Shown here: positions 34,302-37,904 of the stretch, in pieces | Layout: every line of letters begins with the position of its first letter | Numbering within the stretch: the stretch's first letter is position 1 | From: Spirochaetia bacterium | GTDB lineage: Bacteria; Spirochaetota; Spirochaetia; WTKD01; G963693115 | NCBI GenBank assembly: GCA_965226055.1 | Contig: CBDDCA010000006.1 | Location: forward strand, 768,001-832,000 | DNA length: 64,000 nt | Direction: 5' to 3' | Made by a program: the position numbers and the translations under genes | Notes under the pieces: generated by a model | Told to the model about the DNA's origin: nothing | The model's input: only the letters and a program-made list of their open reading frames with translations | Database searches by the model: none

Positions 34302-34318
34302 GGGGTATTACATCTTTT

Positions 34319-34930
34319 ATGGTATTAGTGGTTGATTACGGGGCAGGAAACCTTGCTTCAGTAAAGAATAGTCTGGAATATTTAGGATATACTCCTCTTA
34401 TTAGCTCAAATAAAAAGGATATTCATCGTTGTACTCATATTATTGTGCCAGGCGTTGGTGATGGTTCGTATATGATGCAATGTTTGTATGCGTTAGGATG
34501 GACAGAAGTATTGATTGATTGGGCAGCAAAAGGAAATCCTCTTCTTGGTATTTGTGTTGGTGCACAAGTGCTGTTATCGTTTACTGAGGAAGGATCTCGT
34601 GATTGTTTGGATATTATTTCGGGTCATTGTAAAAAATTTAAGGCAGAACATAAACATGATAAAATACCGCATATGGGATGGAATACTATACGCTTTACAC
34701 AGGAGAATATTCCTTTATTAAGGGATATACAAAATGGAACAAATATGTATTTTGTTCATTCGTATTACTTATCTACTGAAACAGAAGATTCTACTCTTGC
34801 GTATACTGATTATATTGTTTCTTTTTCTTCTATCATAGCAAAGGAATCTGTGTTTGGAGTACAGTTTCATCCTGAAAAATCTGGTGCTAGTGGGTTGCAG
34901 TTACTACGTAATTTTTTGTCATACTACTAG
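34319..34930 (+). CDS. hisH: Imidazole glycerol phosphate synthase glutaminase subunit
   Basis: DYGAGNL, PGVG, GICVG, PHMGWN, YFVHSY, QFHPEKSG. Confidence 0.97.
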   Translation: MVLVVDYGAGNLASVKNSLEYLGYTPLISSNKKDIHRCTHIIVPGVGDGSYMMQCLYALGWTEVLIDWAAKGNPLLGICVGAQVLLSFTEEGSRDCLDIISGHCKKFKAEHKHDKIPHMGWNTIRFTQENIPLLRDIQNGTNMYFVHSYYLSTETEDSTLAYTDYIVSFSSIIAKESVFGVQFHPEKSGASGLQLLRNFLSYY

Positions 34931-34989
34931 ATTTACATTACTAAATATAGTACAATATTACTACTTATTGTGAAAAAAGGAGGATAGTA

Positions 34990-35652
34990 ATGATTATGAG
35001 AGGTATATTACAATCTTCATTTGAGAAATATAATGAAATTGAGGAAAGAATCAAAGAGATAAAAGATAGTGAGCCTTTTAGGTCATGTAATTTTGAAAAT
35101 ATTAAAAGTGTAAAGGATGCCATAGTAGATTACTTAGAAAAAGAGAAAAATGTAGAATGTGAAATTTCCTCTGTTCCTACAAGAGAGAGTATATATGGTT
35201 CTTATGGGAGATTACAGTATCAACCGGATCCTAATACTGAGGATCATGAAGGAGCTAAAGTTAGTATAACATATGTTTCAGACGAGAATGAGAATGGAAA
35301 TAGAGTATTTACTCTCTTACATGAGTTTGGACATCTTATATTACATATTTTTCCTAATCAAGCTCAAAGAAGTACTGTGGTGGATAGAGAGCATGGGGTA
35401 GAAAAGTCATTGGTGGAAAGGGAAGCCGATGTGTTTGCGTCCATTTTTTTAGTTTCTCTAAGAGAAGTCGCTGAGTTTATTTATACTGAAGCAAAGAGAA
35501 ACGAGGAAGAAGGTGTCCGTATTAAAGATATTCTTGAAAACTTTAAAGACAGAATACCTAAAAGTGTTATGAAACTATCTTTGTTTGAAGAGGAGACTGC
35601 CATCAAGGACTTAATTCGTGAGCAAGAAAAAGAAAAACGCGAAGCCTCATAA
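34990..35652 (+). CDS. ImmA/IrrE family Zn metallo-endopeptidase (no obvious N-terminal HTH)
   Basis: RVFTLLHEFGHLILH (HExxH) followed by EREADVFASIFL. Strong SD AAGGAGG. Confidence 0.85.
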   Translation: MIMRGILQSSFEKYNEIEERIKEIKDSEPFRSCNFENIKSVKDAIVDYLEKEKNVECEISSVPTRESIYGSYGRLQYQPDPNTEDHEGAKVSITYVSDENENGNRVFTLLHEFGHLILHIFPNQAQRSTVVDREHGVEKSLVEREADVFASIFLVSLREVAEFIYTEAKRNEEEGVRIKDILENFKDRIPKSVMKLSLFEEETAIKDLIREQEKEKREAS

Positions 35653-36514
35653 TTATTTTTTCTGTTTTTACTCAATAGATATTGTTGATTCCACAAGCCT
35701 AAAGTTATTACATGGTCAAAAAAAGTGGATGGAGGATATTCAAGATCTGAACGCTAAACTTCAAGGTTTGGAAATACCGTTATGGAAGTTTCTTGGAGAT
35801 GAATGGATTTTTTGTCAAAAGATACACAATATGTGTCAGTTTATGAAATATTATGATAATTTTCAGAAGATTATAGAAGTAACAAGTGATTTTGATCAGT
35901 CAGTGAGAGGGAGAATATGGATTATTGAAGAGGATGAAGATGTGTTGACAGAAATTGATAATGGGAAAAATAGGAGTAGTAATGCCGATGATGATAGTAT
36001 GTATTATAAATATGATAACAAGGATGAAATACAAGATTGGGTGAGTTTTTATTTGGACATAGGGTTTCGTTTTGGGAAATGTTGTAATGCATATGATATA
36101 GCAGTGTCTGTAGAGGTAGCATTTCTTCTTGCTTCAATAGTAAAATTAGATAGTAAGTTTTGTTTAGAATTACACTTGGATCATGAATACTATAAAAAAC
36201 TAGATAAACACCCTAAATATAGTCAGTATTCTGATAGATTGAAAGAGATATATGATTTTTGTCGGGGATTTGGAGCACAAAAACGATTTATGTATGCAAA
36301 AGAATCTAAATTGAAAGGGTTTCCCAAGTCGTATGCAAATATTATTCTTGCAAATAAAGGGCTTCGTGAAGAGTATCAAGAAGATATGTTACAATATGAA
36401 GAGGTTGATTTTGAAAAGATATATGCCTATACATCTCGTTTTATGAGAGAATCATTTGGACAAGAAAGACTTGAGTTGTATAGAGATTTATCAAAAAAAT
36501 ATCCACCTCTATAG
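35618..36514 (+). CDS. Divergent class III adenylate/guanylate cyclase-like protein
   Basis: SIDIVDST (first metal Asp), LWKFLGDE (K..GD, second metal Asp), QDWVSFYLDIGFR (aligns to D..G..VN.A.R). GTG start overlaps the peptidase gene. Confidence 0.6.
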   Translation: MSKKKKNAKPHNYFFCFYSIDIVDSTSLKLLHGQKKWMEDIQDLNAKLQGLEIPLWKFLGDEWIFCQKIHNMCQFMKYYDNFQKIIEVTSDFDQSVRGRIWIIEEDEDVLTEIDNGKNRSSNADDDSMYYKYDNKDEIQDWVSFYLDIGFRFGKCCNAYDIAVSVEVAFLLASIVKLDSKFCLELHLDHEYYKKLDKHPKYSQYSDRLKEIYDFCRGFGAQKRFMYAKESKLKGFPKSYANIILANKGLREEYQEDMLQYEEVDFEKIYAYTSRFMRESFGQERLELYRDLSKKYPPL

Positions 36515-36634
36515 TAGTGCTAAAAATTTTTTTTATTTTTGCTCGTACTATTTCGTTTTTCTTTGCTAATTTGCTATACTAGTAATAGTTTCTATGCAGT
36601 ATTGTATACTATGTAGAAAAATAGTACTTGTATT

Positions 36635-37402
36635 ATGTTAAAAAAAAGAGTGATAGTATGTCTTGATGTGTGTAAAGGAAAAGTAACAAAAGGCATTCGA
36701 TTTAAGAATAATAGTGAAATAGGTGATCCTGTAGAGCTTGCTCAGCATTATTATGAGGCTGGGGCAGACGAGTTAGTGTTTTATGATATTACTGCGTCTT
36801 TTGAACAGAGGGCTATCATGATACATATTGTGAAGGATATAGCAAGACATATATATATACCTTTTTCGGTGGGGGGAGGCATACAATCGGTACAGGATAT
36901 GCATAACTTACTTTTGGCTGGAGCAGAAAAAGTAAGTGTTAATAGCTTAGCGGTACTTAATCCAGCTATTATTGATGAAGGAGCAAAGCATTTTGGAAGT
37001 CAATGCATAGTGTTGGGGTTGGATGTATTAGCAGATGCGTTAATGCCAAGTGGGTATAGGGTTGTTATTCGAGGAGGGAGAGAGAAAGTAGATAAGGATG
37101 CTTTGGCTTGGGCAAAAGAGGCTGTTAATCGAGGGGTAGGGGAGATTGTACTCAATAGTATAGATGCAGATGGAACAAAGGAAGGCTACGAGTGTGTGAT
37201 AACACGTTGTATTTCAGAAGAAGTGACTGTTCCCGTAGTAGCTTCTGGAGGAGCTGGTATCCCCGATCATTTAGTGGAAGTATTATCTTCTGCGAAGGCT
37301 GATGCTGCTTTAATTGCATCGATGGTGCATTATGGCACTTACAGTATTGCTGATATAAAGGCGGCTCTTAAGCAAGCTGGCATCCCTATTAGGGAAGAAT
37401 AA
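36635..37402 (+). CDS. hisF: Imidazole glycerol phosphate synthase cyclase subunit
   Basis: KRVIVCLDV, GADELVFYDITAS, VGGGI, GAEKVSVNS, NSIDADGTKEG, ASGGAG. Confidence 0.97.
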   Translation: MLKKRVIVCLDVCKGKVTKGIRFKNNSEIGDPVELAQHYYEAGADELVFYDITASFEQRAIMIHIVKDIARHIYIPFSVGGGIQSVQDMHNLLLAGAEKVSVNSLAVLNPAIIDEGAKHFGSQCIVLGLDVLADALMPSGYRVVIRGGREKVDKDALAWAKEAVNRGVGEIVLNSIDADGTKEGYECVITRCISEEVTVPVVASGGAGIPDHLVEVLSSAKADAALIASMVHYGTYSIADIKAALKQAGIPIREE

Positions 37403-37541
37403 CGGAGGAAACATACAGTAGGTGGTGTTGCCCATGTACAGGAGTAAGTATTGTATGTGTAGTACAGTATGTATAGTACAATACAGTAGATAGATAAATA
37501 GAAAATGAAGAGAGTATAAAATAGTATAGAAAGGATGTATT

Positions 37542-37904
37542 ATGCCAACATATGATTATCAATGTTCAAGTTGTAATGAAGTTATAGAAATATTTCATTC
37601 AATAAAAGATTCTCCTAAAAGAAAATGCCCTCAGTGTAGCAATTTGACTCTTAAGCGCTTGATATCAGGAGGAGCAGGAGTACTGTTTAAGGGGGACGGG
37701 TTTTATGTGAATGACAGTAAATCTGTGAGTAGTGCTAAAAAAGCGGATGTAAAAGCTGCAGATAAGAAGCCTGATTCAACATCGGGAAGCAATACAGAGA
37801 GTACGCCTAACAAGGAGAAAAAGGAACATTCTTCTTCTGATGTTTCTTCTAAACAGAAAGCAAAGGAAACAAGCACTACAGATAAAAAGAGTAGTGTAAC
37901 ATAG
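37542..37904 (+). CDS. FmdB family zinc-ribbon protein
   Basis: MPTYDYQCSSC...CPQC...FKGDGFYVND plus a low-complexity S/K tail. Confidence 0.92.
   Translation: MPTYDYQCSSCNEVIEIFHSIKDSPKRKCPQCSNLTLKRLISGGAGVLFKGDGFYVNDSKSVSSAKKADVKAADKKPDSTSGSNTESTPNKEKKEHSSSDVSSKQKAKETSTTDKKSSVT

Follow-up and report, generated by a model that had tools for sequence, protein, structure and literature searches.

Why do two overlapping genes separate hisH from hisF, which encode the two subunits of one enzyme, in a spirochaete genome, and what might these two genes do together? The locus belongs to a Spirochaetia bacterium (assembly GCA_965226055.1, contig CBDDCA010000006.1, positions 768,001 to 832,000; this whole stretch of 64,000 nucleotides (nt) is referred to below as the window, and the genome as G000). 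A first-pass annotation had read the cassette as a gene for a zinc peptidase (gene 1) followed by a gene for a divergent class III nucleotide cyclase (gene 2), and its description of the cassette sequence is correct in every detail checked (coordinates in Table 1). We find that the cassette is a self-contained, formerly mobile two-gene module, and that the pair recurs on phages, plasmids and variable chromosomal sites in four phyla. On a slight balance of probability, the pair is a protease-gated, Pycsar-like nucleotide conflict module that functions in anti-phage defence or abortive infection.

Gene 2 has no match above threshold in Pfam, NCBIfam or PADLOC, the last of these as anticipated for a novel system. 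The PF00211 cyclase profile does not match gene 2 at E ≤ 1 and, searched genome-wide, picks four other genes only; searches of gene 2 or of its family against PDB sequences by phmmer and hmmsearch gave nothing meaningful. A word-index homologue search with gene 2 returned three matches, and a HMMER pass over 1.84 billion representatives returned 18 homologues at E ≤ 0.001, with no Pfam family in the 10 homologue representatives scanned. The protein contains the motifs SIDIVDST, WKFLGDE and QDW...DIGFR. In a 23-sequence alignment of the family, G60, D61, E62, W101, D147, G149, F150, R151, K233 and G234 are invariant, and D21, K29, W37, W56, K57, D140 and L232 are nearly invariant in the family alignments (D21, K57 and D140 in at least 90% of the 23 sequences). 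This conservation exceeds what chance would be expected to give.

The predicted structure of the gene 2 product leads to the same family of enzymes. An AlphaFold2 (AF2) model from the single sequence has a predicted local distance difference test score (pLDDT) of 40.6, and a model built with a 17-sequence alignment reaches pLDDT 70.0 and a predicted template-modelling score (pTM) of 0.75; residues 108-140 form an acidic loop that is of low confidence in the model. A Foldseek search of the PDB with this model returned 60 matches at E ≤ 0.001, and all 31 listed are catalytic domains of class III adenylyl or guanylyl cyclases, the best among the matches listed having E 3.3e-6 and probability 1.00. 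Against viral structures, Foldseek gave no match at E ≤ 0.001, the two best rows being a giant-virus response regulator and a giant-virus guanylate-cyclase-domain protein. As an independent check on the fold, the family profile was aligned by hhalign with 8 canonical spirochaete cyclases that came from the phylum scan (97.4%, E 1.5e-11, 169 columns). In this alignment, FYSIDIVDST is paired with FLDIVGSTT, WKFLGDE with YKYVGDE, LDIGFR with VNTTSR, and LKG with LKG, so that D21, K57, D61, R151 and K233 align with their canonical counterparts; by this correspondence, D21 and D61 are the two metal-binding Asp residues, R151 is the transition-state Arg and K233 the phosphate-binding Lys. D147, which is Asp in 23 of the 23 family sequences, aligns with the canonical, ribose-orienting Asn four residues before the catalytic Arg. 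The fold and the residue assignments proposed from the motifs, the Asp in place of Asn included, are thus both upheld by these comparisons and by the 23-sequence conservation. In a protein-language-model atlas, clusters labelled 'adenylate cyclase, class 3' are among the nearest (0.95), which is a lead only.

The likeness to canonical class III adenylyl cyclases, such as Rv1900c, Ma1120 and CyaC, is one of fold (target-based template-modelling score (TMt) of 0.60-0.75 for single-domain chains) and of motif order, with F.S.D..ST, K..GDE, a basic residue before the fourth strand, D.IG..ID.GFR and LKG following one another. The spacings K57-x3-D61 and D140-x6-D147-x3-R151 resemble what we take to be those of the adenine-specifying Lys and Asp and of the Asn and Arg of mammalian adenylyl cyclase. 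The differences are no less clear: identity is 9-14%, the family is undetected by PF00211 or by the search of PDB sequences with its own hidden Markov model (HMM), the catalytic-site Asn is replaced by Asp, and there is no sensor or membrane domain. Furthermore, residues 108-140 of gene 2 make up an extended loop that is both acidic and variable, a helical segment is inserted ahead of the final strands, and ~55 amino acids (aa) are added at the C-terminus. By its modelled structure and family alignment, then, gene 2 is a class III cyclase catalytic-domain fold of a very divergent, unannotated family. We infer that the cyclase is active because the full two-metal catalytic residue set is invariant and, by analogy with its relatives, it probably works as a homodimer on ATP or another nucleoside triphosphate (NTP). 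An assignment to the GGDEF or Cas10/mCpol-like proteins was considered and dropped, given that the listed PDB matches are class III cyclases and that the motif order fits class III.

The start of gene 2 bears on its annotation in public databases. By our own reading of the sequence, the GTG at 35618 is the sole standard in-frame start 5' of the metal-Asp motif. The public gene call P0002 (261 aa) begins at Met38 and so omits the conserved F.S.D.V.ST metal-Asp motif (window 35618-35729), and the call P0001 (298 aa) in the sister species includes this motif.

Gene 1 looks like an active, stand-alone M78 peptidase domain with intact catalytic residues. Peptidase_M78 (PF06114) matches the product with 29 bits against a cut-off of 22, and a Pfam scan found no helix-turn-helix (HTH) family in it, in agreement with what had been noticed in the sequence: an HEFGH motif with a downstream Glu and no apparent HTH. 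H111, E112 and H115 of HExxH, together with E143 (within EREADVFA in the window and E.EAN.FA in the family), are invariant in 14 of 14 aligned partner peptidases, as are F107, H119, R133, A146, F149, A150 and L154. The partner peptidases are 164-220 aa long; in the gene 1 product, the N-terminal ~60 aa and an E/K-rich C-terminal region of ~50 aa are lineage-specific. The solved chains nearest to the peptidase family profile are CapP (7t5t, E 1.1e-14), followed by IrrE (3dte, E 3.3e-06). The best PADLOC model for gene 1 is likewise capP (E 7e-11), with the match covering just profile positions 51-121 of 242, and the PADLOC models of RmrA, the RosmerTA antitoxin, match via the peptidase part alone.

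Within this gene, contigs of two public sequencing runs (X5 and X6) contain a 69-nt block of the same length but diverged in sequence at window positions 35047-35117 (peptidase residues ~20-43), the remainder being 95-99% alike.

The association between the two genes extends well beyond the window. In 401 sampled Spirochaetota genomes, the family profile matches 42 at E ≤ 0.001 and 16 (18 places) at E ≤ 1e-30; canonical cyclases make up most of the weak matches (20 open reading frames (ORFs) scanned: 7 with PF00211, 2 with GGDEF and 2 with NUDIX). Seventeen loci, the window included, were extracted, the eighteenth strong locus being L032. The cyclase-like gene is present at all 17 loci and is immediately preceded by a co-directional M78 gene at 14 of them (one is cut by a contig end); L032 is also paired, giving 15 of 18. 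No third gene is common to the 17 loci beyond close relatives. The 35-nt overlap in the window suggests translational coupling; at other loci, the peptidase and cyclase genes likewise overlap, by 26-35 nt, or are 1-55 nt apart. A tblastn search with a Leptospiraceae-type family member found 7 plasmid records and 12 phage records, and the pair is present in 7 of the 8 phage and plasmid records examined (Table 1). The conserved pairing that the first-pass annotation had suggested looking for is therefore found both in the phylum and on mobile elements. The window's own gene 2, used as a tblastn query, found nothing among phages and plasmids, and with a 6-row family alignment as the query only the sister species was found among genomes and nothing in metagenome or viral contigs. 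Over 20 pairs, pairwise distances between the peptidases and between the cyclases are correlated (Pearson 0.87, a value reached by 0 of 2000 Mantel permutations), close relatives contributing to this figure.

Several individual loci deserve mention in their own right. At L038 (G431:C311:3623-3982), a partial cyclase-like family gene (E 6.1e-18) is interrupted by two in-frame stops and probably represents a decayed copy. In G361, a second M78-family ORF of 369 aa lies 700 nt downstream of the pair (L056 9760-14634; L066 2643-9499), and the gene cluster that follows it, which probably encodes type I restriction-modification (R-M) subunits, is shared with a second locus in G303. On the Mycolicibacterium chubuense plasmid (L073 2620-3971), two tandem ImmA/IrrE genes precede the cyclase-like gene, and a phage Gp37/Gp68 gene lies nearby.

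How did the pair come to lie between hisH and hisF? Genes 1 and 2 were sought in 41 genomes, that of the window (G000) and those of 40 relatives, and were found together in 2, namely, G000 and its sister species G001 (OZ244590.1), which belong to one genus; the cassette was not found in the 39 relatives outside the genus, where G017 gave a weak, peptidase-only match (E 0.003). Of 13 genomes searched, 11 yielded hisF, and hisH is directly upstream in all 9 of those outside the genus, with a gap of ~11-34 nt between the matches in these nine cassette-free relatives versus 1,704 nt in the window. The cassette is accordingly not core, and the expectation that relatives would have the two his genes adjacent was borne out. 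G001 carries the same hisH-cassette-hisF arrangement, with both frames intact in both species. Contigs of three public runs from different studies also bridge hisH, the cassette and hisF: one in X1 spanning 34306-37582 (this run may be the source sample), a 47-kb contig in X5 and a 49-kb contig in X7. No credible joint without the cassette was seen in the public-run contigs. An apparent joint in X7 that skips 35167-37895 was rejected as a cassette-less form: it lies on a 1,253-nt contig of depth 3.17, with ~21 letters matched on each side, and is best read as chance word matches.

Synonymous divergence (dS) between the two species, at 0.125 (peptidase) and 0.170 (cyclase), falls inside the span seen for the flanking genes (0.100-0.172), which makes the insertion an old one that has been inherited vertically from then on. 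The G+C content at third codon positions (GC3) of the cassette is 0.24-0.25, the same as in the flanks. The ratio of nonsynonymous to synonymous divergence (dN/dS) is 0.30 for the cyclase and 0.64 for the peptidase, compared with 0.04-0.14 for hisH, hisF, ileS and a hydrolase gene. These observations point to one insertion in the ancestor of this Spirochaetia genus followed by vertical descent. The horizontal acquisition proposed earlier thus stands in part: the pair does occur on phages and plasmids of distant bacteria, but in this genus it is fixed and vertically inherited and is therefore not a recent acquisition. As the window illustrates, a module of this kind is able to settle between genes whose products are the two subunits of one enzyme and to persist through speciation. 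No target-site duplication or terminal inverted repeat was found at the cassette borders.

The best clues to function come from the phages of Clostridioides difficile. In these, the cyclase is a 528-aa protein with a NUDIX-like C-terminus, and a gene for a PycTM effector (PF18967, E 3e-12; PADLOC PycTM, E 2.9e-31) lies next to the pair. The trio of M78 peptidase, 528-aa cyclase-NUDIX protein and PycTM is 100% identical in phiCDHM19 and phiCD27 (L068 4330-6995; L072 2830-5495), and for the cyclase gene alone this full identity extends to five phages (phiCDHM19, phiCD27, phiCD508, CDKM9 and phiC2). The cassette of the window had been described as having no visible receptor for a cyclic nucleoside monophosphate (cNMP); no PycTM was found in the genome either, but in one lineage, that of the C. 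difficile phages, a candidate receptor or effector does abut the pair in the form of PycTM. C-terminal NUDIX fusions are also present in several spirochaete members of the family (Pfam NUDIX in 2 of 20 ORFs scanned; Table 1). A simple pattern search detected a canonical-looking Nudix box in 1 of 5 fusions checked, that of L036 only, and NUDIX domains that lack the canonical box may be non-catalytic. Although their trios are identical, phiCDHM19 and phiCD27 belong to different genera (Lubbockvirus and Colneyvirus), which suggests a recently exchanged cassette.

Neighbouring genes were surveyed as pooled family tallies: the 104 neighbouring ORFs of at least 90 aa from 16 spirochaete loci include some type I R-M, PtuA, mad3 and AbiEii-like AAA_21 genes. 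The host genome of the window encodes four canonical PF00211 cyclases and five cNMP-binding domains. Predictions of a complex between the cyclase and the peptidase scored 0.46, 0.00 and 0.00 in three runs.

Taken together with the pairing, these clues allow a mechanism to be outlined. The cyclase would make a nucleotide signal, probably as a homodimer from ATP or another NTP, and the co-expressed peptidase would gate the cyclase, most simply by cleaving it on a trigger. The target of the signal would be either an effector encoded nearby, as PycTM might be in the C. difficile phages, or cNMP receptors of the host, and the signal would serve in conflicts with phages or with other elements. The converse arrangement, in which the peptidase is a nucleotide-activated effector, was set aside as less likely: a partner of ~175 aa has no room for a nucleotide-binding domain.

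How does such a module compare with the systems already described? With Pycsar it shares the class III cyclase fold, carriage on phages, plasmids and variable islands, and the true PycTM-family gene that adjoins it in the C. difficile phages. It differs in the absence of a PycC or PF00211 match, in the invariant Asp at the site of the catalytic Asn, in having an M78 peptidase rather than an effector as the conserved partner of the cyclase, and in the lack of an effector in the window or at the spirochaete loci, the phage PycTM gene being convergent. With CapP/CapH, IrrE/DdrO and ImmA/ImmR, the likeness is the peptidase domain family, capP being the best PADLOC match and CapP 7t5t the nearest structure; in addition, gene 1 sits upstream of the gene for a nucleotide-signal enzyme, just as CapP lies upstream of CBASS. 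Unlike these systems, the cassette has no XRE/CapH partner gene, and the gene that co-varies with the peptidase is the cyclase. The gene 1 peptidase is also too short for the HTH and GAF domains of CapP, of which it matches only part of the profile, as given above. RosmerTA, which consists of the RmrT toxin and the HTH-M78 antitoxin RmrA, is likewise a two-gene unit with an M78 domain beside a variable partner, but the matches are limited to RmrA positions ~190-290 of ~380, the HTH half is absent, and gene 2 has no RmrT match. As for type II-like toxin-antitoxin systems, only the layout fits, that is, two small overlapping genes on mobile elements. By analogy, the module would work most like Pycsar with a CapP-like accessory gene, yet it lacks features that define each known system.

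PMC13228613 presents CapP and CapH as regulators of immune operons and describes a groove for single-stranded DNA (ssDNA) formed by the HTH and GAF domains of CapP. Makarova et al. 2009 (PMC2701414) discuss COG2856 operons with an Xre partner, not with a cyclase. A pair of an M78 peptidase and a class III-like cyclase is not described in passages of PMC13228613, PMC9503650 and PMC2701414, and a full-text literature search, the scope of which leaves outside subscription journals, supplements and newer DefenseFinder models, found no description of one; the earlier statement that no characterised peptidase-cyclase pair is known agrees with this result.

A number of observations weigh against a conflict module of this kind. 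The cassette is fixed and old in the genus, which is unusual for an accessory defence gene, and the dN/dS of the peptidase could reflect relaxed constraint. The AF2 model of the cyclase is only moderate, with pLDDT 70 and 51 residues below 50, and the PADLOC PycC models match none of the six family members tested (the window and five others). The evidence from PycTM is narrower than it first appears: the gene is convergent with the pair and not in the same operon, and since the trio and the cyclase gene are identical across the phages, the adjacency has to be scored as a single lineage. Searches of G000 (89% complete) and of its sister species G001 found no PycTM, in G303 it sits 1.3 Mb from the pair, and the spirochaete loci have no conserved effector gene next to the pair. 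A cyclase gene that has no peptidase partner is seen at 3 of the 18 spirochaete loci, all in one genus, and on one Sphingomonas plasmid. Finally, many of the neighbouring genes are housekeeping ones (DAHP synthase, Dus, DAO), which leaves the defence-island signal anecdotal.

These weaknesses invite other explanations. The compact unit of two overlapping genes with no conserved third gene, its occurrence on plasmids and prophages and the lack of an effector in this genome would all suit a toxin-antitoxin or addiction pair, in which a cyclase-like toxin would drain NTP or flood the cell with nucleotide, the peptidase antitoxin would degrade or sequester it, and no receptor would be needed. The RmrA models even match the M78 domains, the E value being ~1e-6 with the window protein and reaching 4.5e-19 among the plasmid partners; however, these matches span the peptidase part only, and the HTH half of RmrA is missing. 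The loci and the plasmid with a solitary cyclase show that it is not obviously lethal alone, and the presence of PycTM next to the pair in C. difficile phages favours signalling over depletion. We consider an addiction pair rather improbable. The M78 domain could also belong to a regulatory module of a mobile element, with an ImmA-type anti-repressor protease that cleaves CI/XRE and a cyclase-like protein that senses or signals the state of the host to time induction, the copy in the window being a stranded remnant. This would be in keeping with the position of the LE1 pair beside a CI repressor gene, the annotation of the LE1 peptidase as 'immunity region protein', the location of the C. difficile phage pair between integrase or regulator genes and lysis genes, and the HTH regulator genes less than 2 kb away on L. 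interrogans p5; moreover, phiC2 and LE1 are named among the phages with COG2856 operons by Makarova et al. 2009 (PMC2701414). The window cassette, however, has no room for a repressor gene, HTH_3 is present in just 3 of the 104 neighbouring ORFs, and in the phages the repressor is encoded on the opposite strand and is not transcribed together with the peptidase. Given also that both genes are intact under purifying selection in a non-phage context and that the conserved partner is the cyclase, not a repressor, a role in induction appears quite unlikely.

The persistence of the cassette in one genus raises yet another prospect, namely, that it has become a domesticated cNMP signalling component that feeds host receptors or that it is decaying with no remaining role. 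Its fixation in the two species and its presence in contigs of three further studies, its host-like GC3 and dS, the canonical cyclases and cNMP-binding proteins of the host and the dN/dS of the peptidase are all compatible with such a fate, but all catalytic residues of both proteins are kept, the frames are intact in both species, the dN/dS of the cyclase indicates selection, and the family resides on mobile elements across phyla, so that we give domestication or decay very little credence. Protease gating of a signalling cyclase is the reading that we favour, by a small measure of confidence, over toxin-antitoxin, ImmA-type induction and domestication or decay.

A bolder form of protease gating can be entertained tentatively and is on the doubtful side: the pair would be an undescribed anti-phage or abortive-infection system that spans phyla, in which an ImmA-like protease switches on a cyclase directly, and the change from Asn to Asp would mark a new class III branch with a possibly non-canonical product that is read by PycTM-type effectors or by the fused NUDIX domain. 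Known ImmA/IrrE/CapP proteases control transcription by cutting a repressor. If protease gating is correct, the pair would represent a new wiring of the M78 protease, whose conserved partner is the enzyme itself rather than a repressor, and a class III cyclase family that has been missed by the Pfam, NCBIfam and PADLOC v2 models. The pair would also explain functionally unassigned genes in the immunity regions of LE1 and of widely studied temperate phages of C. difficile, where a gene for a Pycsar-type membrane effector is its neighbour.

As to the layout of the locus, all four ORFs (hisH, gene 1, gene 2 and hisF) are co-directional on the + strand, and there is no further ORF between hisH and hisF besides genes 1 and 2. 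The ORF coordinates and the NCBIfam equivalog matches agree that two overlapping genes split hisH from hisF, as had been seen in the first reading. The impression that both cassette proteins are E/K-rich is also accurate: E+K content is 23.6% for the gene 1 product and 18.8% for the gene 2 product, compared with 10.3-14.8% for five neighbours (ileS, a lipoprotein gene, hisH, hisF and the hydrolase gene); a value of 20.8% places the Zn-ribbon gene, too, above these five. Scans for promoters and terminators gave no more sites than shuffled sequence.

Table 1. Features of the hisH-hisF locus in the window, and NUDIX-carrying family members and phage and plasmid records from other genomes
Feature	Position	Strand	Description
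hisH	34319..34930	+	203 aa; TIGR01855 E 1.2e-59, 201.4 bits vs cut-off 105.4; imidazole glycerol phosphate synthase, glutaminase subunit; upstream flank
Spacer hisH/gene 1	34931..34989	+	59 nt; Shine-Dalgarno-like AAGGAGG at 34977-34983, 6 nt 5' of the gene 1 ATG (sequence reading)
Gene 1	34990..35652	+	220 aa, ATG start; putative stand-alone M78 (ImmA/IrrE/CapP-like) zinc metallopeptidase; PF06114 E 9.8e-07
Gene 1, HEFGH (residues 111-115)	35320-35334	+	zinc-peptidase motif
Gene 1, Glu143	35416-35418	+	predicted third ligand
Gene 1/gene 2 overlap	35618..35652	+	35 nt
Gene 2	35618..36514	+	298 aa, GTG start; predicted divergent class III nucleotidyl-cyclase-fold protein
Gene 2, D21	35678-35680	+	key codon
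Gene 2, K57-G60-D61-E62	35786-35803	+	key codons
Gene 2, D140...D147...R151	36035-36070	+	key codons
Gene 2, K233-G234	36314-36319	+	key codons
Spacer gene 2/hisF	36515..36634	+	120 nt, AT-rich
hisF	36635..37402	+	255 aa; TIGR00735 E 1.3e-98, 329.3 bits vs cut-off 294.55; cyclase subunit of the same enzyme as hisH; downstream flank
NUDIX-carrying member	L022 1030-2403
NUDIX-carrying member	L030 1432-2934
NUDIX-carrying member	L036 1459-2736
Leptospira phage LE1			gp81 (M78) + gp80; beside CI repressor gene
C. difficile phage phiCDHM19			gp44 + gp43; between lysis genes and integrase gene
C. difficile phage phiCD27			orf38 + orf37; between lysis genes and integrase gene
L. interrogans plasmids p5 and pLiSL40			pair present
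Mycolicibacterium chubuense plasmid			pair present; near MPN/JAB and TcmP genes
Tistrella mobilis pTM3 plasmid			pair present (own ORF reading)
Sphingomonas plasmid			cyclase alone

Two further observations concern the surroundings of the cassette. The hisH and hisF genes form an isolated pair outside any his operon, both in the window (34319-37904) and at L011-L014, L016 and L017. An FmdB-type Zn-ribbon gene follows hisH-hisF in the window and in 6 of the 9 relatives, and its tail evolves fast, with dN/dS 0.66.

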